A DNA stretch of 28,763 nucleotides from an uncultured Phycisphaeraceae bacterium (GTDB lineage Bacteria; Planctomycetota; Phycisphaerae; Phycisphaerales; Phycisphaeraceae), in NCBI GenBank assembly GCA_964628335.1, contig CAZVNU010000001.1, forward strand, positions 1 to 28,763. The letters run 5' to 3'. The notes under the pieces are model-generated. The model saw only the letters and a list, made by a program, of their open reading frames with translations. It had not been told where the DNA came from and ran no database searches. Numbering within the stretch: the stretch's first letter is position 1; each line of letters starts with the position of its first letter. A program made the position numbers and the translations under genes. Of the stretch, positions 4,973 through 28,283 are shown piece by piece.

Positions 4973-4988
4973 GGTTCCACGGGGAACA
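4973..4988. other. parS-like centromere site 1
   Basis: GGTTCCACGGGGAACA, close to the bacterial parS palindrome TGTTCCACGTGGAACA; starts immediately after the helicase stop codon. Confidence 0.7.
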
Positions 4989-4990
4989 CT

Positions 4991-5183
4991 GGGAGGGCGG
5001 ACTTTAGTCTGCCATAAGAAAACACAGGCTCAATGCCTGTGTTTTCTTTGTGATTAACACAAACAGCAGGGCTGGCGGGTGTTGGAGCGCGGGTGTCCCG
5101 CCAGCCCTGCACAAACAGGCCGTCAATTAAAAATCGCGGCATTGAGCCGCGATTTTGTTTGGCAGACTGAAGTCCGCCTTCCC
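4991..5183. repeat. Inverted pair of family-1 REP units (REPIN-like) between convergent helicase and parB
   Basis: GGGAGGGCGGACTTTAGTCTGCC at 4991-5013 and an inverted copy at 5161-5183, each with a second hairpin; a family-2 hairpin (14-bp perfect stem, 5066-5079/5097-5110) lies between them. Confidence 0.85.
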
Positions 5184-5185
5184 AG

Positions 5186-5201
5186 TGTTCCCCGTGGAAC
5201 A
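5186..5201. other. parS-like centromere site 2
   Basis: TGTTCCCCGTGGAACA, one mismatch from the perfect parS palindrome; 7 bp beyond the parB stop. Confidence 0.8.
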
Positions 5202-9005: not shown

Positions 9006-9060
9006 GGGGAGGATTTTAGAGGCAGATTTTGACCAAGCCAGCCCTCCGGGGAAAAAAGAA

Positions 9061-9103
9061 TTGCCAACCTATGCTTCCATCCAATACTATGCTTCACATA
9101 GTA
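9061..9103 (+). promoter_or_regulatory. Sigma70-like promoter with overlapping inverted-repeat operator upstream of padR
   Basis: TTGCCA (9061) -N18- TACTAT (9085); perfect IR TACTATG-N5-CATAGTA at 9085-9103; CTATGCTTC repeated at 9069 and 9087. Confidence 0.6.
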
Positions 9104-9126
9104 CTCTCCTTTTTTGCAGGCCACCC

Positions 9127-9480
9127 ATGAAAATCGAAAAAGAACTGATGCGCGGCGCCGGCCCCCTGGCCGTGATGAAACAACTCTCGCGCGGGGAGAT
9201 GTACGGCTATGAACTGGTCAAAGCCCTGTCGCGCCAAAGCGGCGGCGTGCTGGACATGGGCCAATCCACGCTCTACCCCATGCTCTACAACATGGAGGCC
9301 AAAGGCCTGGTCAATTCGCGCGCGGAGGACGGCCCCAACGGCAAGCCGCGCAAGTATTACTTCCTCACCAGCGCCGGCAAAAAACACTTGGTGGCGGAAG
9401 AAGGGCGCTGGAAGACCTTGGTCAAGGCGATGGGGGCGCTGGGCCTTGGCGGCGCGCCAGTGAAGGGGGTGGCGCCATGA
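9127..9480 (+). CDS. PadR-family transcriptional regulator
   Basis: MYGYELVKAL...GQSTLYPMLYNMEAKGLV...RKYYFLTSAG winged-helix signature; start at 9127. Confidence 0.92.
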   Translation: MKIEKELMRGAGPLAVMKQLSRGEMYGYELVKALSRQSGGVLDMGQSTLYPMLYNMEAKGLVNSRAEDGPNGKPRKYYFLTSAGKKHLVAEEGRWKTLVKAMGALGLGGAPVKGVAP

Positions 9481-11339
9481 ATGGCGCTTTGCCCCCGCCC
9501 AATGACTGGAAACAATTTTTAAAGCGCCTGCAACACACGCCGCTGCGCGATCTGTTGCGTGGCAAAGGTGCGACAGGTCGTTTGGATTGGAAAAACACGC
9601 TGACGGCTTGCGCTTTGCCTGGGACCATGCAAGCCGTGGTGACGCAAATCTGCAAGCAACGAAAGTTGTGGCCATTGGAAAAAGTCGCCGTATGCCATGA
9701 ATTGATCGCGCATTTTCAGGATGGATTGGATGCCGGCGAAAGCGCCGACGACTTGGTGAAACATTTCGGCGATGCCCAAATCGCAGCGAAACTTATTTTT
9801 CGCGGCAAGGAGCGGCAGCGGCCGCTGTGGTGGCATGGGTTCAAATGGGTTTCACGTGGCTTCTTGGCGCTGGTGGTGGTGTATGCGGGATTGACGGTTT
9901 ATTATGCGATGGATCGAGTGGTGATCAAGACCGATTACTTGGCAGAGATCAACGCGGTGGCAATGGCCACGCCGGAGTCTGAGCGGGCTTGGCCGATTTA
10001 TCGGGAGGCGCTTGCAAAATGGCCGGCGTTGCGGGAGGAAGAGAAGTGGGAGGAGGTGGGAGAGGATGAGGAAAAGCGGCCGGCGAATTTTGCCGGTGCC
10101 ATTTGGTCATATGACACTTTCAAGCATGCAGCACCCGCCTGGAATTTGATTGCCCGCGAATTGGCCGCCCATCAAGAAGAACTTGACGCTTTTCGCAGCG
10201 CAGCCAAAATGCGGCATTTGGGAGTCAAATTCGGGCGCAATGGCGTTCATCAAGAAGACCTTGCGTTCTTCTCTGGGCAATCCCCACCCATCACTCTTTG
10301 CTCCGAATACAAGGGCGGCGTGGCATTGACTGCCCCAGAAATTCTGGACTCCTGCTTGCTGCACATTGCAACGCCACAGTTGTCTTCTTTACAACAGGCG
10401 ACCCATCTTCTGGCCGCGGACATGCGACATGCCTTTGCGGAGAAAAACAACGCCAAAGGGATTGCCGACCTGCGGGCCATTTTGGGATTGGCGCGGCAAT
10501 TAAGCCAAGAGCAGTTGCTCATGCCACAGTTGACGGCCAAGTCCGTCGGCAACCATGGCGTGGAGGCATTGGCGCGTGCGCTAAAGCAAAACCCCAACGC
10601 GTTTGATGTTCACACACTGCAATCCTTGGCGCAGTTGATGCGGGAAAACCCCGTTTCTGCTTTCCATCTTGATGGCGAGCGGGCTTGGTTTTTTTCCATC
10701 ATCCAAATGCATTACACCGATGACGGCCATGGCGACGGGCACTTCACTTTTGGCGGCACGCGCTCAGGCGGCATTGCCTTGATCACAGCGTCTCGCAAAG
10801 AGGCCGCAGCAATGGTGACGGATTATTTTGACCAACTGAGGGAAGAAGCCGCTATTCCCCTCTGGAAAATGCCTGGAACACCGTCTCAAAAAATTTATGA
10901 ATCCAATTGTTCTGCGGACTTTTTTCACCCCATTGGCCGCTTTCCATTTTGGGCTATTTTTCTGCCTGATCTTTCTCTTCTTCGCCGCAATACCGCCCGC
11001 GCCCAAGCCACCCACTCCGCCCTCGAACTCGGCATCGCCCTCCACCGCCACCGCCTCGCCCACCACGCCTTCCCGCAACAACTCGCCGAACTGGTCCCCG
11101 CTTGCTTGCCGCAACTTCCGGTCGACCCCATCACCGGCGGCCCACTGCATTACCGCTTGGACGAAAAGGGGCAACCCATCGTCTACTCCGTCGGCGGCGA
11201 CCGCCAGGATGACGGCGGCTATGCACCGGTCAACCGCGCCGGTGAAGACGACACCCACGCCACCCAACGCTGGGAAAACTGCGAAGTGAAAGGGGATTGG
11301 ATTTTGTGGCCGATGAGCGACCGGCCGCTGATGAAATGA
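9477..11339 (+). CDS. PadR-coupled membrane-anchored protein
   Basis: ATGA overlap with padR; N-terminal ELIAHFQDG...FGD (HAAS-like) domain, one TM helix, C-terminal LPVDPITGGPLHY...YSVGGDRQDDGG pseudopilin-G-like motif. Confidence 0.85.
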   Translation: MNGALPPPNDWKQFLKRLQHTPLRDLLRGKGATGRLDWKNTLTACALPGTMQAVVTQICKQRKLWPLEKVAVCHELIAHFQDGLDAGESADDLVKHFGDAQIAAKLIFRGKERQRPLWWHGFKWVSRGFLALVVVYAGLTVYYAMDRVVIKTDYLAEINAVAMATPESERAWPIYREALAKWPALREEEKWEEVGEDEEKRPANFAGAIWSYDTFKHAAPAWNLIARELAAHQEELDAFRSAAKMRHLGVKFGRNGVHQEDLAFFSGQSPPITLCSEYKGGVALTAPEILDSCLLHIATPQLSSLQQATHLLAADMRHAFAEKNNAKGIADLRAILGLARQLSQEQLLMPQLTAKSVGNHGVEALARALKQNPNAFDVHTLQSLAQLMRENPVSAFHLDGERAWFFSIIQMHYTDDGHGDGHFTFGGTRSGGIALITASRKEAAAMVTDYFDQLREEAAIPLWKMPGTPSQKIYESNCSADFFHPIGRFPFWAIFLPDLSLLRRNTARAQATHSALELGIALHRHRLAHHAFPQQLAELVPACLPQLPVDPITGGPLHYRLDEKGQPIVYSVGGDRQDDGGYAPVNRAGEDDTHATQRWENCEVKGDWILWPMSDRPLMK

Positions 11340-11341
11340 CT

Positions 11342-11494
11342 GGGAGGGCGGACTTCAGTCTGCCAAACAAAATCGCGGCTCAACGCCGCGATTTTTAGTG
11401 GAGATGGGATGAGACAACCTCTTGGCGTCGACCTTTTAATTTTCACGGGCATTGAGCCCGTGAAAATGCTTGGTAGACTGAAGTCCGCCCTCCC
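11342..11494. repeat. Inverted pair of family-1 REP units downstream of RAYT
   Basis: GGGAGGGCGGACTTCAGTCTGCC at 11342-11364 and an inverted copy at 11472-11494; second hairpins at 11369-11395 and 11439-11467. Confidence 0.88.
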
Positions 11495-11497
11495 GGT

Positions 11498-12178: not shown

Positions 12179-12192
12179 GGAGCCAGTTTACC

Positions 12193-12318
12193 GGGAGGGC
12201 GGACTTCAGTCTGCCAAACGAAATCACGGCTCAACGCCGCGATTTTTAGTGGGCATGGGATGAGACAATGTCTTGACGCCAACCCTTCATTGCTGCGGGC
12301 ATCGAGCCCGCAGCAATG
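12193..12318. repeat. Family-1 REP unit upstream of RAYT plus degraded partner
   Basis: REP at 12193-12215, second hairpin 12221-12245, spacer similar to 11400-11435, and an orphan hairpin CATTGCTGCGGGC-ATCGA-GCCCGCAGCAATG at 12288-12318. Confidence 0.8.
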
Positions 12319-15339: not shown

Positions 15340-15413
15340 GGGCAGTTAGCTCAGTTGGCTAGAGCGCATCGTTGACATCGATGAGGTCACTGGTTCGAGT
15401 CCAGTACCGCCCA
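15340..15413 (+). tRNA. tRNA-Val (anticodon GAC), CCA not encoded
   Basis: Cloverleaf: GGGCAGT/ACCGCCC acceptor (A5-C68 mismatch), GCTC/GAGC D-stem, CATCG-TTGACAT-CGATG anticodon arm, ACTGG-TTCGAGT-CCAGT T arm, discriminator A. Confidence 0.95.
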
Positions 15414-16757
15414 CTTGGCCCACATCTTTCCGATGTGGGCTTTTTTTTGGACTGGCTTGTTTTCTCGCTTTTCTCCGTGTTTTTTGAAGTTTTCTGCTGC
15501 GGCCTCACTTGCTGCCACGGCCTCGCTCTGGCGCGTTCTGTCTTGGGTTTTGTCTTGGTTTTGCGTTTTTTGAGAAAAAGTGTCAGACAGAACTTTGTCC
15601 GCCAGCCCTTCCTTCACGGCTTCAACAACATCTTCCTCCCCAGTTCGCAGGTAGGAGCGTGCAGCCTCGCCCATGGAGTGCCCTACCCATGCGGCCTCCT
15701 TTTTCCCACCATATTTGTCTTCAATCTCATTGGATGCCGTGCATCGCAGGGATTGACACAAGCGGGGATACTTTTCCAGTCCTGCCGCTTTGATTGCCCT
15801 TGTGATCGCGTTTGTGATCGCCCCTTCGCTTTTTCCATGGATTTCGGGGAACACCAGTCCTTCCGTGGGACGCCCCATTTCTTTCCAGTACGCCGCCAAT
15901 TCTTGACGGATTGGCGTCCCGTCAAACATGGGGCAGGTTCGCCCAGGTCTTCCTGGCTTGGTTTCTTTGATGCGGATTGAAAGGCTATCCCAATTGAGGT
16001 CTTGCCAGCGCAAAAGCCTTGGCTCTTCCTTGCGCAGGCCAGCCCAGCGCAAGAGGGCGTAATAGGGGCGGTACTCACCCTTCAGTTCCTGCATGGTTCT
16101 ACGGGCTTCCGCGTCCCCCACTTTGTAGCGTCTATCCGCCTTGGCAGGGGTAACGGACACCTTGATTTCCTTGCCCTTGGCGACATTCTCCCGCAAAACT
16201 CCATGGGATACACCCCACTCCAATGCGGCCCTCAAGATGCAGGCATCTTTGCGGATGGTGTTTTCCGCGTACTTCACGGTCTTTTCGCCCTTCTTGTAGG
16301 TTGCGTTCCGCATCTTATTTTGCCAATCAATGACGGCCCCTTTGGTCAGGTTGCGGACAAGGAAATTCGCGGGGAAAAACTTCAAAAGCCTACTTAGCAT
16401 GGTGGTTTCCTTTTGAACCGTTGCAGCATGTGATTTCGTGGCGGTGTACGCCTCCATGTAAGCCTTCAGTCCCGTGGGAAGCAATGTTGCGGCCTTGACA
16501 AGACCAAGGGCGGCTAAGCGTTGGCGGACTTCGTATGGACGGCTTTCCGCCCATTTACGGGCATCCTCCGCTGGCTCCGTGGCATGATCAATGGCATCCT
16601 TGAGAGCGTAGACATAGCCATTCCATTTCTGAAATTCGCGCTCATTCTTCAATCCTGTACGGAATTCAACTCTTTTTCCCGTAATCGGTTGGCGGAAGTA
16701 AATGATGTTTGAAAATGCGGGTTTCTTGGCGGCTTTTGGGGTTGTGTGGGCGTTCAT
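15387..16757 (-). CDS. Tyrosine recombinase/integrase, attL form (456 aa)
   Basis: WAGLRKEE (R), KETKPG (K), QSLR, WVGHS and SYL (Y) catalytic motifs; the ORF crosses attL and ends ...WAVLDSNQ antisense to the tRNA T arm. Confidence 0.9.
   Translation of the reverse strand: MNAHTTPKAAKKPAFSNIIYFRQPITGKRVEFRTGLKNEREFQKWNGYVYALKDAIDHATEPAEDARKWAESRPYEVRQRLAALGLVKAATLLPTGLKAYMEAYTATKSHAATVQKETTMLSRLLKFFPANFLVRNLTKGAVIDWQNKMRNATYKKGEKTVKYAENTIRKDACILRAALEWGVSHGVLRENVAKGKEIKVSVTPAKADRRYKVGDAEARRTMQELKGEYRPYYALLRWAGLRKEEPRLLRWQDLNWDSLSIRIKETKPGRPGRTCPMFDGTPIRQELAAYWKEMGRPTEGLVFPEIHGKSEGAITNAITRAIKAAGLEKYPRLCQSLRCTASNEIEDKYGGKKEAAWVGHSMGEAARSYLRTGEEDVVEAVKEGLADKVLSDTFSQKTQNQDKTQDRTRQSEAVAASEAAAENFKKHGEKRENKPVQKKAHIGKMWAKWAVLDSNQ
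15418..15448 (+). terminator. Element-supplied intrinsic terminator for tRNA-Val
   Basis: GCCCACATC-TTTCC-GATGTGGGC followed by T8, beginning 4 bp after the att core; second copy at 21768-21798. Confidence 0.85.
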
Positions 16758-16779
16758 TATGCAGTCTTTCGGAAGTTGT

Positions 16780-16812
16780 GACCTGGATACCAGGTCTTTG
16801 TTCGGGTGTCAA
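16780..16812 (-). promoter_or_regulatory. Candidate int promoter with overlapping palindrome
   Basis: Minus-strand TTGACA (16812-16807) -N17- TATCCA (16789-16784); GACCTGG-ATA-CCAGGTC palindrome at 16780-16796 covers the -10. Confidence 0.45.
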
Positions 16813-16821
16813 GATGTCAGT

Positions 16822-17061
16822 CTATCGCTGGATATATCTATCAATTGAAGAGCGTGTTATGCGCTTTCCTTTCTCTCCTACGGGGATGCGCTCCAACTCT
16901 CCCCGCTCTGCCATGGCGCGGATGGCATCGGCCCCCACACTAAGCAATGCTCCAGCCTCCGCATCCGTCAAAAGCAAGGGGGTGAGCAACTTTCCTCTAA
17001 GTTCTCGCGTCACGATCTCCGCTACTGCTTGGGCTTGTTTCAATCCGTCTAGGTCTAACAT
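16822..17061 (-). CDS. Excisionase-like HTH protein (recombination directionality factor candidate)
   Basis: LLLTDAEAGALLSV...IRAMAERGELERI...RITRSSIDRYI HTH_17/MerR-like pattern; AAAGGAG SD; directly upstream of int. Confidence 0.8.
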   Translation of the reverse strand: MLDLDGLKQAQAVAEIVTRELRGKLLTPLLLTDAEAGALLSVGADAIRAMAERGELERIPVGEKGKRITRSSIDRYIQR

Positions 17062-18384
17062 GGTTTTCTCCTTTCGAGAGATTGGGTTGGAATAAAAATG
17101 GACAAGGGGATAGACTCAAAGGACTGGAAGGCCCTTTTATTCCTCTTTTAGTTATTAGTGGCGCAGGCTTTAGAATGGCCTATGGGCCATTCTAGGCGGC
17201 GATGATTGATTATACGCCGTGCCTCTATTTTGTCTAAACCACCACCCAAGATTCCTATTCAGTTCTGCTAATTTGCGCCGAAAAAAACACATTTGCCCAT
17301 GAAGATGTGCGGGGGTGCAAATATCTCTATTAGATATGGCGAAAAGAAAAATAAATATCAAATAAAGGAAAAACATCTTTTTGACGATAATTAGTTTAGA
17401 GTGGCGTGTTTGCGCCAACAAAAATGCAGAACATCCGTTGTAATCATAGGTAAGTCTGGCATAGTCCCTCTTGTAAGTCGAGTCTCGCTGTGAAGCGTTG
17501 ATGATCTGGCAAGATGTGGAGATGCCCAAGTGCGTGACGGCGCGAGTCTCTGGAGGGCAATGACTATAAAAAATGCGTCGGCCGAGGCGGGATTATTAAC
17601 CCCGCTAAAGTGGAAAACTTCACATGTTTTTGCTAAATCCAGAAGGCACTGGTATACGCGATGTGATTGAAAACACTTGCAACCGCTATGGATAATTTCC
17701 TGCGGTTGGGAAACGGCGTTAAAAAACGAAACGAAAAGGTCAGAATTTGAGGGTGAACTCCTTGAACTGGCTTCCATGAGCGCGATAAATCTATAACTTC
17801 TCATGGGTTTGGCTTCAGGTCTTGAAGTCAGATACGGGAGTGCTGTGAAAGCGAATAACTCTTTTCCCACATAATTTCGCCTACTAACAAAATCATCCTA
17901 ACTTTTGGGCAATTGCTTAAATGAAGGCTTGTTTTTGAAGGAACAGGCGAATCCGCCTGTTGCCTTCGTGGTTTAGTTACGACACTCGCTTTGCTCCGTG
18001 TCGTAGCACACACGATTCGCTGGCGCGAACCGCGTGTGTTTTTGATGAATTGTGGTTTGGACTTTTCAGGCGGAGTGACAGGATTCGGCGTGGCTTTAGG
18101 TTGTAAATTGGATGATTGCAAGTTATTGAAACAAAACTGGATAGCCGACAGGCTATACGGTTTTTTGAGGCGAAGCGAAGTGAGCCGAAAATCCTTGACC
18201 ATGATAGGGGAAGGTCTAGACGCACTTGGTTGTAGGGGCGGATCGTGTTCATGCCATAGTTATATGCCGCCGACCCTTTCTGTCAAAAATTCGCGCAAGA
18301 ATCCGATTCCGTTGGATAAAACTGCCGCCATGGTCAATCCTGAACCGTCTGCGGGGAGATTTGATCTGCACCGACAGGTGCCCA

Positions 18385-19080
18385 TCATGCGGCTTTACCC
18401 CGCTGGAGGATGCCAAGGATTGTCCGCGCCTGCCACCGTCCGCCTTGGCGTGTCTGGCGTCCTTCTTGGGTGAGCGTGTCGGCAATCTTGGCGAGAGAGA
18501 GGCGGCGTGCCCCTTTTGGTTTGCGCCGAAGTTCAAAGATGCGCTCAATGACGGCCTCTTCACCTGGGAGCACGCCGTAAGGTTTAACCCCCTCCACGCG
18601 CCGACCACCTGCGGCCATGCTCTTCTGATCACGGGCATGGCGGAGTTTTTGCACGATGCAATTTTTGTCAAATTGGGCAATGCTGCCAAGGATTTGGCGG
18701 ATCATTACTTTTTCAGGTGATCCCGTGTCATCGGTCAAGGCTTGACCTGATTCCGCATTGATGACAGAAACGCCCATCTTTTTCAGTACCAATAAGATTT
18801 TTTCAGATTCGATGAGGCTTCTTGCTAGACGATCCGCTCTTTCCACAAGAACTACCTTCACGCCTTGCTCTTTGACGGCAAGGAGCAAGCGGGAGAGGGC
18901 GGGGCGGGTGGCCCCTTCGGTCGTCCCGCTCACGCCTTCTTCGCGGAACACTTCCACTACTTCCAGCCCGTTTCGCTTTGCATAGCGTTGACACACCTCA
19001 TGCTGGCGATCCAGCCCCGTGCCATTATTGACTTGGCCAAGAGAGGAGACGCGAAGATACGAGAAGCATGGGGTTTTCAT
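18385..19080 (-). CDS. Serine recombinase (resolvase catalytic domain plus short recombinase DNA-binding domain)
   Basis: YLRVSS catalytic Ser, EEGVSG, RPAL, DRLARS, then KPYG...IADTLTQEG..TRQGGRW recombinase-domain motifs; no zinc-ribbon extension. Confidence 0.9.
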   Translation of the reverse strand: MKTPCFSYLRVSSLGQVNNGTGLDRQHEVCQRYAKRNGLEVVEVFREEGVSGTTEGATRPALSRLLLAVKEQGVKVVLVERADRLARSLIESEKILLVLKKMGVSVINAESGQALTDDTGSPEKVMIRQILGSIAQFDKNCIVQKLRHARDQKSMAAGGRRVEGVKPYGVLPGEEAVIERIFELRRKPKGARRLSLAKIADTLTQEGRQTRQGGRWQARTILGILQRGKAA

Positions 19081-19086
19081 ATCGAA

Positions 19087-19115
19087 ATAATAGCAACTTG
19101 CTATTTAATGGTCAA
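19087..19115 (-). promoter_or_regulatory. Leaderless sigma70 promoter of the serine recombinase with overlapping operator
   Basis: Minus strand TTGACC-N17-TATTAT, 6 nt before the ATG; palindrome ATAGCAACTTGCTAT (19090-19104) overlaps spacer and -10. Confidence 0.75.
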
Positions 19116-19204
19116 GGGTCGGCAGAAAAATCCGTGAATAATTCTTCAGAATCATTCACGGAAACTATCGCAAGTAGCGATATAGCATCTTGTTGTTATC
19201 AAAA

Positions 19205-19489
19205 TCATCGCTTCCGCTTGTCCTGTTTTTTCAACGGAAAGCCCAAAATATCGTTGGGCGTACAGGAGAGAGCAATGGCAAGCCTACAAAGTGCCTCTAC
19301 CGAAGGGCGGCGGGTTCCGCGCTCCCATCCCGCAATGTTCACTTGGCCCACGGTTCGATCCATGCCCATTGCTTCGGCGACTTCCGACTGGGTGAGGTCA
19401 AGGGCCGTGCGTTGCTCTTTGATGCGCTCGCCCAAGTCCGTGCCGCCAAAGTTGAAGGGTTCAAAGGTAGTAGTAAGGAGTTTTGGCAT
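19205..19489 (-). CDS. XRE-family repressor
   Basis: LGERIKEQRTALDLTQSEVAEAMG...IAGWERGTRRPSVEALCRLAIALSCTPNDILG; likely start MPKLL at 19489. Confidence 0.88.
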   Translation of the reverse strand: MPKLLTTTFEPFNFGGTDLGERIKEQRTALDLTQSEVAEAMGMDRTVGQVNIAGWERGTRRPSVEALCRLAIALSCTPNDILGFPLKKQDKRKR

Positions 19490-19527
19490 GGTGGCGAGAG
19501 AATAGCAAGATGCGATACCTTGGCATT

Positions 19528-19767
19528 TCAAAAGAACCGCTGCAACAATCTCAACGCCTCGCGGCGTCTGTCTGTTGCTGATGCCCATTGCGCAAACTCA
19601 ATCGCATCCACCCGCCGTTCCGATGTCTCGCATTTGTGGACTTGGCTTCGGGCCACCTTGAGTTTCGCGGCCAAGTCCCGTTGGGTCATACCAGCATCTT
19701 CCCGCCAGTCCCGTAGGGTGGCGGACAGTTTTTGGTAGTTGGGGTCATGGAGGCGTCCTGCTTTCAT
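19528..19767 (-). CDS. Small XRE HTH protein (controller/C-protein-like)
   Basis: YQKLSATLRDWREDAGMTQRDLAAKL...VHKCETSERRVDAIEF. Confidence 0.82.
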   Translation of the reverse strand: MKAGRLHDPNYQKLSATLRDWREDAGMTQRDLAAKLKVARSQVHKCETSERRVDAIEFAQWASATDRRREALRLLQRFF

Positions 19768-19912
19768 TTTGGAAGCAAGGTAAGCGCGTCCTTCCGTGCT
19801 TCCAGAATCGGGCCAAGATGCCTTGACGATGGAAAGGAGGTTAGATACAGTTCCCTTGCTTCATTTTTAGAAGCAAGACCTTTTCCCCCACCACTCTTTG
19901 GAGAGTCAGCCG

Positions 19913-20329
19913 ATGAAAAATCCCGTCCTTCCCGTCCTCCTGCTTGCCTCCTGCTTCCTTGTAATTGGGTGCGGCAAGAAAGACGCCGCTTCCGCCACCT
20001 CTGCGGCTGTGAATGACTCCTATCCCTCGGTTTCCAAGGAGCGTTTGCAGATACTTAAAAGCGAGTTCTCAAAAAGCTTTCCTTCCAGCATCTACGACGG
20101 AGGAACAATTACCAGCATTGAAAAGTGCGACGACATTGAATATCAATACAAAGTGAATGTGCGGTTCAGCAAGGTTGGGGGTGGCGGTGCGGTCATACTG
20201 AAAATGGACGATCACTTCCATGTTTCTCCCAGTTATACCGTTCTGGAGGGAACGGATCTTGACGGATCTCAAATGCAACTTCAACTTTGTGGGCCCGCAG
20301 CCATCGCAGGTCAATCCAAGAGCAAGTGA
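19913..20329 (+). CDS. Hypothetical lipoprotein
   Basis: MKNPVLPVLLLASCFLVIG-C lipobox; GGAGAG SD upstream of ATG 19913. Confidence 0.72.
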   Translation: MKNPVLPVLLLASCFLVIGCGKKDAASATSAAVNDSYPSVSKERLQILKSEFSKSFPSSIYDGGTITSIEKCDDIEYQYKVNVRFSKVGGGGAVILKMDDHFHVSPSYTVLEGTDLDGSQMQLQLCGPAAIAGQSKSK

Positions 20330-20413
20330 ACGAATCGACAAAAATGTTTTTTTGCAACGCCTCGCTACCACTGTGGAGGCAAACTCGAAACGCCCGAAAT
20401 GGGCAAAGGATGA

Positions 20414-20611
20414 ATGATGTTTGAAACTCCAACAGACCCCAAGAAGGCGATACGAGACGATTTCAAGAAAGACCTGAACGATCTCAAGGCGAAACTTAAC
20501 GGGTATCTTTCACGGCTTGAAGAAGAAAAAGACGCGCCGACAAAGTCCCCTCAAACAGCCATGTCGGACGCAAAAAAAGCAATTGATGGGATAGCAAAAT
20601 GTTTTCAGTAG
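20414..20611 (+). CDS. Small hypothetical coiled-coil protein (65 aa)
   Basis: AAAGGA SD at 20405-20410; amphipathic helix pattern FKKDLNDLKAKLNGYLSRLEEE. Confidence 0.55.
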   Translation: MMFETPTDPKKAIRDDFKKDLNDLKAKLNGYLSRLEEEKDAPTKSPQTAMSDAKKAIDGIAKCFQ

Positions 20612-21119
20612 TCGCCATTTTTCAAACGCCCTTCGCCATCAAACGGCGAGGGTGTTTTTCTTTCCGCCAAAAAATCATCCGCGCCACAAGACTGGAAAAT
20701 GATTCTGGATTTCCCCTTTTCCTGTGGAAAGGCATCGGCGGGGTGGCACCCATGGTGGAATGGCGGAATAGATTTGAAATCTAATTCCCAGCGCAGAAAA
20801 ATTGCGCCCCGCAGAAAGCAGGCATTCCAACCTCCGATGGCCGATGCCCTCAATCCGACCCTGTTTTCAAAACCTGTAAATGGCGAAAACAAAACCAGCA
20901 CGCTTGAGGGCATTTTCAAGTGTCAATTTGTTAGAAAACATCTTGTTTTGAAGTGCGGCGTGATGGTTTGACCTCATGGATCAAAAAATCGACCTTGGCT
21001 AAAGCTTGTATGGTTTTGATGGATTTCAGTTTCGCCTCCTTTTTGGCCATGCGAAGAGGAATCCACTCCCTGATATGTGAAGTTCCTTAGAGCAAGCAAA
21101 CCCTTCAAGGAGATTCGAC

Positions 21120-21389
21120 ATGAAATATGGGCTACTCAAAAAGCATGGGATGGATGGAACAGGCGCGATTATTTACCACTGGGATTTGATCCCGCCCAAA
21201 ATGGTCAAGACTGCCGCTACGAAAGAAGTTGAAGACTGGATCGAGTTGGAACGAGTGCCAAAGGCTTTGGAGGACGATGAAGACACCGTGATCCTTTTGT
21301 GCCGCTGGAATCCGTCGAAAGGGCTGGAAACCGCCAAGCCCATTATTCTCCCCTTTGATGGCCCGCCTGCGGTGGGCTTGGCGATATAG
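21120..21389 (+). CDS. Small hypothetical protein (89 aa)
   Basis: AAGGAG SD at 21107-21112; globular-looking composition. Confidence 0.6.
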   Translation: MKYGLLKKHGMDGTGAIIYHWDLIPPKMVKTAATKEVEDWIELERVPKALEDDEDTVILLCRWNPSKGLETAKPIILPFDGPPAVGLAI

Positions 21390-21592
21390 GCCCAGGTAAT
21401 CACTTCCGACTCTTTCAACAAAATTAAGAATGAAGGGGTTTCGTTACTTGTCAAGGTGGTGGAGGTGGCATTGCCTATTGCGCCGTCCAAGCCCCACAAA
21501 GCGGCCTGAATGCCCCCAGGACGCTTCGCCAATTTAGCCACCCTATTCCCCATCTGACGCCATGGGCGGCTTCCAGCGGCATTCCAGCCGTT

Positions 21593-23107
21593 CTATTTGA
21601 GCAAAGCAAGGATAGCCCGCAGTGCCGCGACCTTTTCAGGCGGCAGACTGGCCAATTCTGCCAGTAACCCCAGCACGCCGTCTTGGGCTTTGTCTTGGTT
21701 TTGGGGGGCCTCCTCTTGTTTTTCACGAGAATCTTGGGCGATAGTCTGGCCCAGTACCGCCCACTTGGCCCACATCTTTCCGATGTGGGCTTTTTTTTGG
21801 ACTGGCTTGTTTTCTCGCTTTTCTCCGTGTTTTTTGAAGTTTTCTGCTGCGGCCTCACTTGCTGCCACGGCCTCGCTCTGGCGCGTTCTGTCTTGGGTTT
21901 TGTCTTGGTTTTGCGTTTTTTGAGAAAAAGTGTCAGACAGAACTTTGTCCGCCAGCCCTTCCTTCACGGCTTCAACAACATCTTCCTCCCCAGTTCGCAG
22001 GTAGGAGCGTGCAGCCTCGCCCATGGAGTGCCCTACCCATGCGGCCTCCTTTTTCCCACCATATTTGTCTTCAATCTCATTGGATGCCGTGCATCGCAGG
22101 GATTGACACAAGCGGGGATACTTTTCCAGTCCTGCCGCTTTGATTGCCCTTGTGATCGCGTTTGTGATCGCCCCTTCGCTTTTTCCATGGATTTCGGGGA
22201 ACACCAGTCCTTCCGTGGGACGCCCCATTTCTTTCCAGTACGCCGCCAATTCTTGACGGATTGGCGTCCCGTCAAACATGGGGCAGGTTCGCCCAGGTCT
22301 TCCTGGCTTGGTTTCTTTGATGCGGATTGAAAGGCTATCCCAATTGAGGTCTTGCCAGCGCAAAAGCCTTGGCTCTTCCTTGCGCAGGCCAGCCCAGCGC
22401 AAGAGGGCGTAATAGGGGCGGTACTCACCCTTCAGTTCCTGCATGGTTCTACGGGCTTCCGCGTCCCCCACTTTGTAGCGTCTATCCGCCTTGGCAGGGG
22501 TAACGGACACCTTGATTTCCTTGCCCTTGGCGACATTCTCCCGCAAAACTCCATGGGATACACCCCACTCCAATGCGGCCCTCAAGATGCAGGCATCTTT
22601 GCGGATGGTGTTTTCCGCGTACTTCACGGTCTTTTCGCCCTTCTTGTAGGTTGCGTTCCGCATCTTATTTTGCCAATCAATGACGGCCCCTTTGGTCAGG
22701 TTGCGGACAAGGAAATTCGCGGGGAAAAACTTCAAAAGCCTACTTAGCATGGTGGTTTCCTTTTGAACCGTTGCAGCATGTGATTTCGTGGCGGTGTACG
22801 CCTCCATGTAAGCCTTCAGTCCCGTGGGAAGCAATGTTGCGGCCTTGACAAGACCAAGGGCGGCTAAGCGTTGGCGGACTTCGTATGGACGGCTTTCCGC
22901 CCATTTACGGGCATCCTCCGCTGGCTCCGTGGCATGATCAATGGCATCCTTGAGAGCGTAGACATAGCCATTCCATTTCTGAAATTCGCGCTCATTCTTC
23001 AATCCTGTACGGAATTCAACTCTTTTTCCCGTAATCGGTTGGCGGAAGTAAATGATGTTTGAAAATGCGGGTTTCTTGGCGGCTTTTGGGGTTGTGTGGG
23101 CGTTCAT
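21593..23107 (-). CDS. Tyrosine integrase, attP-junction form (504 aa)
   Basis: Identical to the 456-aa form up to ...KWAVL, then continues GQTIAQ...LPPEKVAALRAILALLK across the unit1/unit2 junction. Confidence 0.9.
   Translation of the reverse strand: MNAHTTPKAAKKPAFSNIIYFRQPITGKRVEFRTGLKNEREFQKWNGYVYALKDAIDHATEPAEDARKWAESRPYEVRQRLAALGLVKAATLLPTGLKAYMEAYTATKSHAATVQKETTMLSRLLKFFPANFLVRNLTKGAVIDWQNKMRNATYKKGEKTVKYAENTIRKDACILRAALEWGVSHGVLRENVAKGKEIKVSVTPAKADRRYKVGDAEARRTMQELKGEYRPYYALLRWAGLRKEEPRLLRWQDLNWDSLSIRIKETKPGRPGRTCPMFDGTPIRQELAAYWKEMGRPTEGLVFPEIHGKSEGAITNAITRAIKAAGLEKYPRLCQSLRCTASNEIEDKYGGKKEAAWVGHSMGEAARSYLRTGEEDVVEAVKEGLADKVLSDTFSQKTQNQDKTQDRTRQSEAVAASEAAAENFKKHGEKRENKPVQKKAHIGKMWAKWAVLGQTIAQDSREKQEEAPQNQDKAQDGVLGLLAELASLPPEKVAALRAILALLK
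21751..21763 (+). other. attP-type junction core
   Basis: CCAGTACCGCCCA with the attR left flank (ATAGTCTGGC) and the attL right flank (CTTGGCC). Confidence 0.9.
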
Positions 23108-23171
23108 TATGCAGTCTTTCGGAAGTTGTGACCTGGATACCAGGTCTTTGTTCGGGTGTCAAGATGTCAGT

Positions 23172-23411
23172 CTATCGCTGGATATATCTATCAATTGAAG
23201 AGCGTGTTATGCGCTTTCCTTTCTCTCCTACGGGGATGCGCTCCAACTCTCCCCGCTCTGCCATGGCGCGGATGGCATCGGCCCCCACACTAAGCAATGC
23301 TCCAGCCTCCGCATCCGTCAAAAGCAAGGGGGTGAGCAACTTTCCTCTAAGTTCTCGCGTCACGATCTCCGCTACTGCTTGGGCTTGTTTCAATCCGTCT
23401 AGGTCTAACAT
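23172..23411 (-). CDS. Excisionase-like HTH protein (copy 2)
   Basis: Identical translation to 16822-17061. Confidence 0.8.
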   Translation of the reverse strand: MLDLDGLKQAQAVAEIVTRELRGKLLTPLLLTDAEAGALLSVGADAIRAMAERGELERIPVGEKGKRITRSSIDRYIQR

Positions 23412-24734
23412 GGTTTTCTCCTTTCGAGAGATTGGGTTGGAATAAAAATGGACAAGGGGATAGACTCAAAGGACTGGAAGGCCCTTTTATTCCTCTTTTA
23501 GTTATTAGTGGCGCAGGCTTTAGAATGGCCTATGGGCCATTCTAGGCGGCGATGATTGATTATACGCCGTGCCTCTATTTTGTCTAAACCACCACCCAAG
23601 ATTCCTATTCAGTTCTGCTAATTTGCGCCGAAAAAAACACATTTGCCCATGAAGATGTGCGGGGGTGCAAATATCTCTATTAGATATGGCGAAAAGAAAA
23701 ATAAATATCAAATAAAGGAAAAACATCTTTTTGACGATAATTAGTTTAGAGTGGCGTGTTTGCGCCAACAAAAATGCAGAACATCCGTTGTAATCATAGG
23801 TAAGTCTGGCATAGTCCCTCTTGTAAGTCGAGTCTCGCTGTGAAGCGTTGATGATCTGGCAAGATGTGGAGATGCCCAAGTGCGTGACGGCGCGAGTCTC
23901 TGGAGGGCAATGACTATAAAAAATGCGTCGGCCGAGGCGGGATTATTAACCCCGCTAAAGTGGAAAACTTCACATGTTTTTGCTAAATCCAGAAGGCACT
24001 GGTATACGCGATGTGATTGAAAACACTTGCAACCGCTATGGATAATTTCCTGCGGTTGGGAAACGGCGTTAAAAAACGAAACGAAAAGGTCAGAATTTGA
24101 GGGTGAACTCCTTGAACTGGCTTCCATGAGCGCGATAAATCTATAACTTCTCATGGGTTTGGCTTCAGGTCTTGAAGTCAGATACGGGAGTGCTGTGAAA
24201 GCGAATAACTCTTTTCCCACATAATTTCGCCTACTAACAAAATCATCCTAACTTTTGGGCAATTGCTTAAATGAAGGCTTGTTTTTGAAGGAACAGGCGA
24301 ATCCGCCTGTTGCCTTCGTGGTTTAGTTACGACACTCGCTTTGCTCCGTGTCGTAGCACACACGATTCGCTGGCGCGAACCGCGTGTGTTTTTGATGAAT
24401 TGTGGTTTGGACTTTTCAGGCGGAGTGACAGGATTCGGCGTGGCTTTAGGTTGTAAATTGGATGATTGCAAGTTATTGAAACAAAACTGGATAGCCGACA
24501 GGCTATACGGTTTTTTGAGGCGAAGCGAAGTGAGCCGAAAATCCTTGACCATGATAGGGGAAGGTCTAGACGCACTTGGTTGTAGGGGCGGATCGTGTTC
24601 ATGCCATAGTTATATGCCGCCGACCCTTTCTGTCAAAAATTCGCGCAAGAATCCGATTCCGTTGGATAAAACTGCCGCCATGGTCAATCCTGAACCGTCT
24701 GCGGGGAGATTTGATCTGCACCGACAGGTGCCCA

Positions 24735-25430
24735 TCATGCGGCTTTACCCCGCTGGAGGATGCCAAGGATTGTCCGCGCCTGCCACCGTCCGCCTTGGCG
24801 TGTCTGGCGTCCTTCTTGGGTGAGCGTGTCGGCAATCTTGGCGAGAGAGAGGCGGCGTGCCCCTTTTGGTTTGCGCCGAAGTTCAAAGATGCGCTCAATG
24901 ACGGCCTCTTCACCTGGGAGCACGCCGTAAGGTTTAACCCCCTCCACGCGCCGACCACCTGCGGCCATGCTCTTCTGATCACGGGCATGGCGGAGTTTTT
25001 GCACGATGCAATTTTTGTCAAATTGGGCAATGCTGCCAAGGATTTGGCGGATCATTACTTTTTCAGGTGATCCCGTGTCATCGGTCAAGGCTTGACCTGA
25101 TTCCGCATTGATGACAGAAACGCCCATCTTTTTCAGTACCAATAAGATTTTTTCAGATTCGATGAGGCTTCTTGCTAGACGATCCGCTCTTTCCACAAGA
25201 ACTACCTTCACGCCTTGCTCTTTGACGGCAAGGAGCAAGCGGGAGAGGGCGGGGCGGGTGGCCCCTTCGGTCGTCCCGCTCACGCCTTCTTCGCGGAACA
25301 CTTCCACTACTTCCAGCCCGTTTCGCTTTGCATAGCGTTGACACACCTCATGCTGGCGATCCAGCCCCGTGCCATTATTGACTTGGCCAAGAGAGGAGAC
25401 GCGAAGATACGAGAAGCATGGGGTTTTCAT
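24735..25430 (-). CDS. Serine recombinase (copy 2)
   Basis: Identical translation to 18385-19080. Confidence 0.9.
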   Translation of the reverse strand: MKTPCFSYLRVSSLGQVNNGTGLDRQHEVCQRYAKRNGLEVVEVFREEGVSGTTEGATRPALSRLLLAVKEQGVKVVLVERADRLARSLIESEKILLVLKKMGVSVINAESGQALTDDTGSPEKVMIRQILGSIAQFDKNCIVQKLRHARDQKSMAAGGRRVEGVKPYGVLPGEEAVIERIFELRRKPKGARRLSLAKIADTLTQEGRQTRQGGRWQARTILGILQRGKAA

Positions 25431-25554
25431 ATCGAAATAATAGCAACTTGCTATTTAATGGTCAAGGGTCGGCAGAAAAATCCGTGAATAATTCTTCAGA
25501 ATCATTCACGGAAACTATCGCAAGTAGCGATATAGCATCTTGTTGTTATCAAAA

Positions 25555-25839
25555 TCATCGCTTCCGCTTGTCCTGTTTTTTCAACGGAAAGCCCAAAATA
25601 TCGTTGGGCGTACAGGAGAGAGCAATGGCAAGCCTACAAAGTGCCTCTACCGAAGGGCGGCGGGTTCCGCGCTCCCATCCCGCAATGTTCACTTGGCCCA
25701 CGGTTCGATCCATGCCCATTGCTTCGGCGACTTCCGACTGGGTGAGGTCAAGGGCCGTGCGTTGCTCTTTGATGCGCTCGCCCAAGTCCGTGCCGCCAAA
25801 GTTGAAGGGTTCAAAGGTAGTAGTAAGGAGTTTTGGCAT
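25555..25839 (-). CDS. XRE-family repressor (copy 2)
   Basis: Identical translation to 19205-19489. Confidence 0.88.
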   Translation of the reverse strand: MPKLLTTTFEPFNFGGTDLGERIKEQRTALDLTQSEVAEAMGMDRTVGQVNIAGWERGTRRPSVEALCRLAIALSCTPNDILGFPLKKQDKRKR

Positions 25840-25877
25840 GGTGGCGAGAGAATAGCAAGATGCGATACCTTGGCATT

Positions 25878-26117
25878 TCAAAAGAACCGCTGCAACAATC
25901 TCAACGCCTCGCGGCGTCTGTCTGTTGCTGATGCCCATTGCGCAAACTCAATCGCATCCACCCGCCGTTCCGATGTCTCGCATTTGTGGACTTGGCTTCG
26001 GGCCACCTTGAGTTTCGCGGCCAAGTCCCGTTGGGTCATACCAGCATCTTCCCGCCAGTCCCGTAGGGTGGCGGACAGTTTTTGGTAGTTGGGGTCATGG
26101 AGGCGTCCTGCTTTCAT
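25878..26117 (-). CDS. Small XRE HTH protein (copy 2)
   Basis: Identical translation to 19528-19767. Confidence 0.82.
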   Translation of the reverse strand: MKAGRLHDPNYQKLSATLRDWREDAGMTQRDLAAKLKVARSQVHKCETSERRVDAIEFAQWASATDRRREALRLLQRFF

Positions 26118-26262
26118 TTTGGAAGCAAGGTAAGCGCGTCCTTCCGTGCTTCCAGAATCGGGCCAAGATGCCTTGACGATGGAAAGGAGGTTAGATACAG
26201 TTCCCTTGCTTCATTTTTAGAAGCAAGACCTTTTCCCCCACCACTCTTTGGAGAGTCAGCCG

Positions 26263-26679
26263 ATGAAAAATCCCGTCCTTCCCGTCCTCCTGCTTGCCTC
26301 CTGCTTCCTTGTAATTGGGTGCGGCAAGAAAGACGCCGCTTCCGCCACCTCTGCGGCTGTGAATGACTCCTATCCCTCGGTTTCCAAGGAGCGTTTGCAG
26401 ATACTTAAAAGCGAGTTCTCAAAAAGCTTTCCTTCCAGCATCTACGACGGAGGAACAATTACCAGCATTGAAAAGTGCGACGACATTGAATATCAATACA
26501 AAGTGAATGTGCGGTTCAGCAAGGTTGGGGGTGGCGGTGCGGTCATACTGAAAATGGACGATCACTTCCATGTTTCTCCCAGTTATACCGTTCTGGAGGG
26601 AACGGATCTTGACGGATCTCAAATGCAACTTCAACTTTGTGGGCCCGCAGCCATCGCAGGTCAATCCAAGAGCAAGTGA
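26263..26679 (+). CDS. Hypothetical lipoprotein (copy 2)
   Basis: Identical translation to 19913-20329. Confidence 0.72.
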   Translation: MKNPVLPVLLLASCFLVIGCGKKDAASATSAAVNDSYPSVSKERLQILKSEFSKSFPSSIYDGGTITSIEKCDDIEYQYKVNVRFSKVGGGGAVILKMDDHFHVSPSYTVLEGTDLDGSQMQLQLCGPAAIAGQSKSK

Positions 26680-26763
26680 ACGAATCGACAAAAATGTTTT
26701 TTTGCAACGCCTCGCTACCACTGTGGAGGCAAACTCGAAACGCCCGAAATGGGCAAAGGATGA

Positions 26764-26961
26764 ATGATGTTTGAAACTCCAACAGACCCCAAGAAGGCGA
26801 TACGAGACGATTTCAAGAAAGACCTGAACGATCTCAAGGCGAAACTTAACGGGTATCTTTCACGGCTTGAAGAAGAAAAAGACGCGCCGACAAAGTCCCC
26901 TCAAACAGCCATGTCGGACGCAAAAAAAGCAATTGATGGGATAGCAAAATGTTTTCAGTAG
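26764..26961 (+). CDS. Small hypothetical protein (copy 2)
   Basis: Identical translation to 20414-20611. Confidence 0.55.
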   Translation: MMFETPTDPKKAIRDDFKKDLNDLKAKLNGYLSRLEEEKDAPTKSPQTAMSDAKKAIDGIAKCFQ

Positions 26962-27469
26962 TCGCCATTTTTCAAACGCCCTTCGCCATCAAACGGCGAG
27001 GGTGTTTTTCTTTCCGCCAAAAAATCATCCGCGCCACAAGACTGGAAAATGATTCTGGATTTCCCCTTTTCCTGTGGAAAGGCATCGGCGGGGTGGCACC
27101 CATGGTGGAATGGCGGAATAGATTTGAAATCTAATTCCCAGCGCAGAAAAATTGCGCCCCGCAGAAAGCAGGCATTCCAACCTCCGATGGCCGATGCCCT
27201 CAATCCGACCCTGTTTTCAAAACCTGTAAATGGCGAAAACAAAACCAGCACGCTTGAGGGCATTTTCAAGTGTCAATTTGTTAGAAAACATCTTGTTTTG
27301 AAGTGCGGCGTGATGGTTTGACCTCATGGATCAAAAAATCGACCTTGGCTAAAGCTTGTATGGTTTTGATGGATTTCAGTTTCGCCTCCTTTTTGGCCAT
27401 GCGAAGAGGAATCCACTCCCTGATATGTGAAGTTCCTTAGAGCAAGCAAACCCTTCAAGGAGATTCGAC

Positions 27470-27739
27470 ATGAAATATGGGCTACTCAAAAAGCATGGGA
27501 TGGATGGAACAGGCGCGATTATTTACCACTGGGATTTGATCCCGCCCAAAATGGTCAAGACTGCCGCTACGAAAGAAGTTGAAGACTGGATCGAGTTGGA
27601 ACGAGTGCCAAAGGCTTTGGAGGACGATGAAGACACCGTGATCCTTTTGTGCCGCTGGAATCCGTCGAAAGGGCTGGAAACCGCCAAGCCCATTATTCTC
27701 CCCTTTGATGGCCCGCCTGCGGTGGGCTTGGCGATATAG
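27470..27739 (+). CDS. Small hypothetical protein (copy 2)
   Basis: Identical translation to 21120-21389. Confidence 0.6.
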   Translation: MKYGLLKKHGMDGTGAIIYHWDLIPPKMVKTAATKEVEDWIELERVPKALEDDEDTVILLCRWNPSKGLETAKPIILPFDGPPAVGLAI

Positions 27740-27942
27740 GCCCAGGTAATCACTTCCGACTCTTTCAACAAAATTAAGAATGAAGGGGTTTCGTTACTTG
27801 TCAAGGTGGTGGAGGTGGCATTGCCTATTGCGCCGTCCAAGCCCCACAAAGCGGCCTGAATGCCCCCAGGACGCTTCGCCAATTTAGCCACCCTATTCCC
27901 CATCTGACGCCATGGGCGGCTTCCAGCGGCATTCCAGCCGTT

Positions 27943-28113
27943 CTATTTGAGCAAAGCAAGGATAGCCCGCAGTGCCGCGACCTTTTCAGGCGGCAGACTG
28001 GCCAATTCTGCCAGTAACCCCAGCACGCCGTCTTGGGCTTTGTCTTGGTTTTGGGGGGCCTCCTCTTGTTTTTCACGAGAATCTTGGGCGATAGTCTGGC
28101 CCAGTACCGCCCA
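27943..28113 (-). pseudogene. Orphaned 3' tail of the integrase gene at attR
   Basis: Same WAVLGQTIAQ...ILALLK tail as the 504-aa form, but preceded by an in-frame TGA at 28141-28143 with no ATG, GTG or TTG between. Confidence 0.8.
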
Positions 28114-28117
28114 TAAT

Positions 28118-28141
28118 GGCCCGCCAAACGGCGGGTCTTTT
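28118..28141 (+). terminator. Terminator following the displaced tRNA 3' end (attR)
   Basis: GGCCCGCC-AAAC-GGCGGGTC-TTTT just after the core at 28101-28113. Confidence 0.75.
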
Positions 28142-28230
28142 CATTTCCCCAGTCGCCACGCCAAAGAACCAGCGACCCTGTCGCGCCTGTGGCGCGCCAG
28201 ATCACGGGGAAAGATCGCGCTGCGCGGATG

Positions 28231-28283
28231 CGAGTCCAGTACCGCCCATGAAGGTAAAAATCCGCCGATGAGGCGGGTTTTTT
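28231..28283 (+). other. Second displaced tRNA-Val 3' fragment (18 bp) with its own terminator; relic att site
   Basis: CGAGTCCAGTACCGCCCA (28231-28248) equals 15396-15413; followed by AAAAATCCGCC-GATGA-GGCGGGTTTTTT (28256-28283). Confidence 0.8.

Follow-up and report, generated by a model that had tools for sequence, protein, structure and literature searches.

The stretch of DNA analysed here, hereafter the window, is the entire 28,763-base contig CAZVNU010000001.1 of an uncultured Phycisphaeraceae bacterium, one of the 466 contigs in a metagenome-assembled genome that is 85% complete. The threonyl-tRNA synthetase that it encodes is 62% identical to those of Phycisphaerae metagenome-assembled genomes, which assigns it to the class Phycisphaerae of the Planctomycetota. 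The window carries thrS upstream of a tRNA-Val(GAC) gene, and in the 3' end of the tRNA gene lies a 6.35-kb integrative non-phage island, which encodes a tyrosine integrase (int), an excisionase-like protein with a helix-turn-helix domain of the HTH_17 family, a small serine recombinase, two XRE regulators and a lipoprotein. This element is present twice, head to tail, as a 6350-bp unit, and there are zero mismatches between the copies across 6363 bases (period 6350). A 13-bp core (CCAGTACCGCCCA), which consists of the last bases of tRNA-Val(GAC), marks the left attachment site (attL), the right attachment site (attR) and, between the two copies, a junction in the configuration of the element's own site, attP (Table 1). 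At attL, the element contributes both the terminator of the tRNA gene and its last 13 bases.

The core lies within int itself, as noted in a preliminary description of this DNA that had read it as W-A-V-L. Sequence comparison assigns it to codons W449-A450-V451-L452 and the first base of codon 453 of a 504-codon frame, and what follows depends on the attachment site. At attL, the frame enters the antisense strand of the tRNA gene and stops after DSNQ, which gives a protein of 456 residues. At the attP-type junction, it gains a 52-residue tail and reaches 504 residues, while at attR the same tail is orphaned behind a stop. The two forms have 452 residues in common, and integration exchanges the remaining 52 for DSNQ and a stop inside the antisense tRNA-Val. 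This shows that recombination at the core splits int, and that nothing but a rejoining of the two ends, either at a tandem junction or on a circle after excision, restores the 504-residue form, the tail at attR being cut off by a stop. The catalytic residues (R237, K267, R338 and Y369), invariant in 114 homologues, are all upstream of the core. The catalytic motifs are intact in both forms, and the 456-residue integrated form retains every domain and catalytic residue, unlike in the SSV1 type, in which integration leaves no intact catalytic enzyme encoded. On each of these points, including the restriction of the long form to a circle or a tandem junction, the preliminary description is borne out.

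As for the protein, its catalytic residues and predicted fold identify it as a lambda-type tyrosine integrase. The Pfam family PF00589 scores 24.8 bits on it, just below the cut-off of 27.1, and the best Foldseek match of its structural model is full-length lambda Int (1z1b, E 3e-9). The AlphaFold2 model of the 504-residue form, built with 114 homologues, has a confident three-domain body (residues 20-395), mostly with a predicted local distance difference test score (pLDDT) >90, followed by a disordered linker (residues 400-475) and by a tail of two predicted helices (residues 474-486 and 490-503, pLDDT 83-85) with L-P-P between them. The DNA of the disordered linker doubles as a putative arm-type repeat (P' arm), as the replacement terminator of the tRNA gene and as the 13-bp core. 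The 24-nt direct repeats that flank the core are read as candidate arm-type sites. An uncontrolled prediction of a complex between the integrase core (residues 1-400) and the tail gave a score of 0.00, which is evidence neither way.

Table 1. Coordinates of the attachment sites, integrase forms and other features in the window
Feature	Position	Strand	Basis or remark
tRNA-Val(GAC)	15340-15414	+	ARAGORN; Rfam tRNA 64.9 bits; intact at attL
int, integrated (attL) form, 456 residues	15387-16757	-	Ends WAVLDSNQ; stop and final 4 codons formed by antisense tRNA
Element copy 1 (6350 bp)	15401-21750		Repeat comparison; identity block with copy 2 is 15401-21763
Core at attL, CCAGTACCGCCCA	15401-15413		Sequence comparison
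Terminator hairpin and T8 for the rebuilt tRNA	15418-15447	+	Read from the sequence; within int frame, antisense is ..KKAHIGKMWAK
Candidate arm-type site, P' arm	15540-15563		GTCTTGG-type double repeat, 127 nt from core; in int linker, encodes QNQDKTQD
Xis-like HTH_17 gene, directly upstream of int	16822-17061 (second copy 23172-23411)	-	PF12728 E 9e-7; phrog_66 excisionase
Small serine recombinase, resolvase type, cargo	18385-19080	-	PF00239 E 2.8e-29
Two overlapping XRE-type helix-turn-helix regulator genes	19205-19767 (19205-19588, 19528-19767)	-	PF01381, PF13560
int, attP-type form, 504 residues	21593-23107	-	WAVL and 52 residues, ending ...LPPEKVAALRAILALLK
52-codon tail (residues 453-504)	21596-21751	-	Predicted helix-LPP-helix, residues 474-503, is 21599-21688
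Candidate arm-type site, P arm	21680-21703		Starts 71 nt before core; within tail coding region, encodes QNQDKAQD
Core at the copy 1-copy 2 junction, attP configuration	21751-21763		Sequence comparison
Element copy 2, same sequence as copy 1	21751-28100		Identity block with copy 1 is 21751-28113
Orphan tail at attR, 52 codons	27946-28101	-	Severed from int by a stop immediately past the core (K, stop, then KDPPFGGPLWAVLGQ...)
Core at attR	28101-28113		Sequence comparison
18-bp copy of the tRNA 3' end	28231-28248		117 bp past attR; contains the fourth core copy (28236-28248)

Integrase frames that cross attP in Planctomycetota

A search of 1.84 billion representative proteins yielded 722 homologues of the integrase at E <= 1e-10, the best of which is 36% identical to it and all others no more than 34%; a word-index search of 5.8 billion proteins returned the window's own protein alone. 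According to a simple pattern, 54 of 151 database representatives end in antisense-tRNA peptides (e.g., GLEPVT, RDSNP and RTRTC). Related genomes supplied 28 homologue loci, and at 20 of these the int frame stops 36-75 nt into a tRNA gene on the opposite strand.

We rebuilt attP for nine elements, the window's included, by tracing the duplicated tRNA end, which lies at a distance of 5-19 kb. The blocks of identity in these elements are just 13-26 bp long and, therefore, the stop of the integrated int always lies beyond the block. When the attR flank is joined to the core, the int frame extends by 42-77 residues in all nine, and most of the rebuilt tails end in a motif of the approximate form DPxLAxVVxAWPxLPxAVRAGIxAMV. 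Lack of in-frame conservation among homologous integrases, which the preliminary description had named as a reason to abandon its proposal, is thus not what we found. Natural long forms are also present in the databases (P0027, P0058, P0108, P0143 and others), with the core peptide within the frame and the tail attached, e.g., ..VGGTGLEQ.. with the motif 50-70 residues later. The predicted structure of one canonical long form, P0027, resembles that of the window's integrase and comprises a confident body, ~75 disordered residues and a helical tail (pLDDT 80-92).

Within the order, 123 of 201 genomes match a profile of the tail motif (E <= 1e-5), and within the phylum 54 of 301 do so, nearly always in short open frames. 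The order-wide search provided 30 fetched loci, of which 26 have the motif 95-280 nt downstream of a reverse-complemented tRNA 3' end. Judging from this arrangement, the motif copies beside tRNA 3' ends are orphan tails at attR. Comparison of the motif with Pfam and with the sequences in the PDB gave no meaningful match. In seven of the nine rebuilt elements, the window's among them, the core has direct repeats on either side, at about -47 to -79 and +96 to +137.

Together, these comparisons show that a frame crossing attP is the standard design of this Planctomycetota integrase family, most members of which have the conserved tail motif. We found no published description of the family, its tail motif or its arm-site layout in the literature.

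Several individual loci add detail. The closest homologue (P0003, at 2670-4028 in L003/L004, metagenome contigs from ENA) sits in tRNA-Val(GAC) beside thrS, and its frame traverses almost the entire tRNA gene, with an overlap of 69 nt. The window's own genome holds two further orphan tails, one on contig 34 (2729-2806) at tRNA-His and one on contig 14 (1472-1537) at a tRNA-Val(TAC) fragment, the latter ~7 kb from an integrase paralogue (8568-9737). At L183 (G193:C11, 8328-10304), the canonical motif ends a full-length integrase of a different subfamily, recognizable by its HALRHT box; a tRNA-antisense core peptide precedes the motif, and there is no tRNA within the 20 kb fetched. The tail module hence appears to be common to more than one integrase clade. 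At L010 (G012:C14, 1297-2873), the int frame passes the core peptide GDTGLEQ and the canonical motif is in another frame, which may make it a frameshifted attP-type copy. As for the arm-type repeats of the family, their spacing around the core is fixed (~-70 and +120), and the linker peptide GAESGA, GAECGA or GAKSGA found ~20 residues past the core (loci L060-L089, rebuilt attP) is a translated repeat.

The window's tail and its possible role

The tail in the window has the position of the family tail, a similar length and a predicted helix-LP-helix, but L stands where W is invariant in the family, and LPP is followed by an insertion of four residues. A gapped pairwise comparison reached z 3.5, a value matched by 6 of 1000 shuffles, and this is the only suggestive test. 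The window's arm-type repeat is unlike the GCGCCGCATTC-type repeat that is usual in the family, a difference consistent with drift of the entire lineage. Other results count against the reading of this tail that we prefer, set out below. Family tail profiles give it 1-2 bits, a score equalled by 7-10% of composition-matched shuffles, no integrase exceeds 36% identity in the 1.8 billion representatives, and an open frame of 56 codons past the core is not unusual here, since another frame is open for 95. A profile of three W-less tails scored its own seeds and nothing else, the ESM Atlas returned no look-alikes of the tail, and the exact tail-plus-core sequence was not found in metagenome and viral contigs. 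The preliminary description had proposed related genomes as the place to look for orphan tails next to tRNA 3' fragments; these turned up for the family motif (at the 26 of 30 loci above) but not for the window's own tail, for which a search of 200 genomes of the order returned only noise. We regard the window's tail as a probable, divergent member of the family, and not as a proven one.

The reading that we prefer, and consider fairly probable, is that the tail of this lambda-type integrase, whose frame crosses its own attP, would be a module for the free form, lost on integration as in the Myxococcus phage Mx8. Integration and excision rewrite the 3' end of int, the integrated copy ending four codons into the antisense tRNA with the tail stranded at attR. 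The free (attP) form would need the tail, as a protein module, for attP x attB recombination to be efficient or to run in the right direction, by analogy with the IntP and IntX forms of the Mx8 enzyme. Loss of the tail would leave a weaker enzyme, damp further recombination and help to stabilize the integrated element pending the action of the Xis-like protein; in this state, the end of int would face a convergently transcribed tRNA gene. We infer this mechanism because, in Mx8, integration alters the 3' end of int without inactivating the enzyme, and an activity or directionality module of this kind is our best guess for the role of the tail.

Some observations argue for caution. The best BLASTP alignment with Mx8 Int has an E value of 0.069 over 15 residues, which is no significant similarity, and the Mx8 tail (~112 residues) is without the helix-LP-helix motif; the analogy is therefore architectural only. 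More tentatively, and with some doubt on our part, the helix-LP-helix tail could be a portable sensor of the integration state across Planctomycetota integrases, the L183 subfamily included. It would bind to the integrase itself, to its partner protomers or to the excisionase, and integrative synapsis would require it. Were this true, removal and restoration of the tail by the enzyme's own reaction would be a built-in directionality control through gene rewriting, and a general principle and not a curiosity of Mx8.

Alternatively, the window's tail might be neutral read-through, with a frame that happens to be open across the P arm, 52 extra residues that are idle and a family conservation that does not apply to it. 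The failure of the family profile to score this tail, its lack of relatives of its own and an open length within the reach of other frames are all compatible with this, and the QNQDKAQD portion is a mere translation of the DNA repeat. However, the tail matches the conserved family tail in position, approximate length and predicted helix-LP-helix, the gapped comparison points the same way, AlphaFold2 predicts helices after a disordered linker, and an in-frame tail is retained in every rebuilt element, which makes idle read-through unlikely. It is also decidedly improbable that the conservation past the core is that of DNA, i.e., of sites in the P arm for the arm-binding part of Int, for Xis or for bending proteins, with the tail as a by-product. 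Arm-type direct repeats do lie in coding sequence on either side of the core, at conserved distances, and they account for the recurring linker peptides (GAESGA-type in the family, QNQDKxQD in the window). By contrast, the conserved residues of the 25-codon motif are written in several synonymous codons, 3-5 each, and the majority-base share is lowest at third positions (0.66, vs. 0.76 at first and 0.87 at second positions), which argues that the constraint acts on the protein, although the set was picked by protein similarity and this inflates apparent purifying selection. Moreover, the motif ends near a stop in the int frame at every locus fetched in the order-wide search, and it is also attached to the different integrase subfamily of L183.

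Less probable still is the option, raised in the preliminary description, that the tail is a C-terminal degron, through which the free form would turn over quickly and the integrated form persist, or vice versa. The hydrophobic C terminus (..AILALLK) speaks for it, as does the likeness to the ssrA-like tags of mycobacteriophage BPs proteins, a precedent cited in the preliminary description. Terminal degrons depend on the last few residues, yet the conserved part of the family tail is an internal two-helix unit, after which come 1 to 20 residues (62 and 64 at two loci) of variable number and sequence. This internal position of the conserved unit, with variable residues behind it, makes a degron unlikely; in addition, the loci fetched in the order-wide search have no conserved residues at the extreme C terminus, and the tail is predicted to be folded and not a free peptide.

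Copy number and surroundings of the element

The 13-bp core is shorter than any assembly k-mer and an attP-type junction must, for this reason, have been read; therefore, attP-type molecules, be they circles or tandem copies, are present in the sample. Consequently, the 504-residue gene is real and the element recently active, whether as a circle or in tandem. The depth figures rest on assembled contigs of two public runs, X1 and X2, in which coverage is low. In run X1, the element has a depth of 5.3-6.8 vs. 5.6 for the flank, which does not support two copies per chromosome. Among the pieces listed for this run, none crosses the junction between copies 1 and 2; the unitig on the int side begins in attL-specific sequence and is unbranched, and that on the tail side runs on into attR, a picture that fits a single integrated copy. 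In run X2, the element (~5.5-6.8) has about twice the depth of the flank (1.8-2.9). Of four sampled words of the junction stretch, X2 holds three and X1 two.

Most simply, the dimer in the contig is an assembler walk through integrated copies and some attP junctions, from circles or real tandems. A narrower version, to which we give an even chance, has no chromosomal tandem at all, but single integrated copies and a minority of circles, the assembler having traversed the loop once. It agrees with the origin of the window as one contig of a metagenome-assembled genome in 466 contigs, with the identical sequence of the two copies, and with the flank-like depth and the attL and attR unitigs of run X1. 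The twofold depth and the higher count of junction words in run X2 point the other way, and tandem prophages are known for Mx8.

A candidate empty attB in run X1, first suggested by a loose end past the core, is explained by the fourth copy of the core, absent from the preliminary description, which is part of an 18-bp copy of the tRNA 3' end (28231-28248). That copy is probably a displaced tRNA fragment from an older, since-decayed element. At 28114-28248, just past attR, a 117-bp stretch with a terminator-like hairpin of its own precedes this 18-bp copy of the tRNA-Val 3' end. The region is without a tail-like frame and is probably what remains of an older element whose identity block was longer.

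As for the remaining content of the window, the serine recombinase has 231 residues and its 'Recombinase' domain is represented by its start only; it represents either cargo or a large serine recombinase that has been truncated. A 1.2-kb stretch of low G+C content (~44%) is found in both copies of the element (17100-18380 and 23450-24730); its open reading frames have no match in Pfam or PHROG and none in Rfam, and a search for iteron-directed repeats at 17.0-18.4 kb returned nothing convincing. The Rfam scan of the entire window gave no match besides the tRNA. Outside the element, a family of intergenic repeats of up to 98 nt (ACTGGGAGGGCGGACTTCAGTCTGCC...), in direct and inverted copies that are 80-89% alike (4988-5025, 5147-5186, 11339-11436, 11458-11497 and 12190-12287), looks like REP-like (repetitive extragenic palindromic) or MITE-like (miniature inverted-repeat transposable element) elements.

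Comparison with known systems

Accounts of directionality in tyrosine integrases usually invoke arm sites and excisionases. The rewriting of an integrase gene by its own reaction, as a means of regulating the enzyme, stood almost alone in Mx8. The window is a clean natural example, with both forms of int on one contig, and the removable tail is a well-defined target for mutation, of ~25 residues. There are consequences for annotation as well: gene calls for int in this family routinely include spurious ends translated from antisense tRNA, and an orphan tail marks attR precisely.

Lambda Int shares with the window's integrase the three domains and the catalytic R-K-R-Y, and candidate arm-type repeats flank the core in the window. 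However, the lambda gene ends shortly past the catalytic tyrosine, beside attP, whereas int in the window crosses attP with a 130-residue extension. Integrases that extend across attP are allowed for by Islander (PMC4383910). In the 'suicidal' integrases of the SSV1 type, found in archaeal viruses and plasmids, attP is also in the integrase gene, which is cut by integration into a tRNA gene (PMC8371274). In contrast to these, the catalytic enzyme of the window survives whole and the distal tail alone is removed. The SSV-type gene is split in two, and the integrated state is not known to retain an intact integrase. In the mycobacteriophages BPs and Brujita, attP is in the repressor gene and integration removes a degradation tag. 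The likeness to the window is that integration alters the C terminus of a protein and couples its properties to the integration state; the difference is that the protein is here the integrase, and the part removed resembles a folded module.

The closest parallel in design is Mx8 with its IntP/IntX integrase (Tojo et al. 1996; Magrini et al. 1999), in which attP lies within int and integration creates a new 3' end, the enzyme being altered but not inactivated (PMC6070905). In both systems, a tyrosine integrase has the attP core close to the 3' end of its own frame, a tRNA gene provides attB with its 3' end, and the frame holds an antisense-tRNA peptide (STGLEPV in Mx8, WAVL in the window). Integration trades a long C-terminal tail for a few residues and leaves the catalytic domain untouched, tandem copies regenerate the long form, and an excisionase-like helix-turn-helix gene is found directly upstream (uoi in Mx8, HTH_17 in the window). 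The prophage form of the Mx8 enzyme, IntX, is said to be less active. A tblastn search with the integrase against 50,697 phage records gave no match and, unlike Mx8, the window holds a 6.35-kb non-phage island, whose design recurs throughout a very large integrase family of the Planctomycetota that has a conserved tail. The design of the window's element is thus already known in kind from Mx8, and is extended here as the rule of a large Planctomycetota family.

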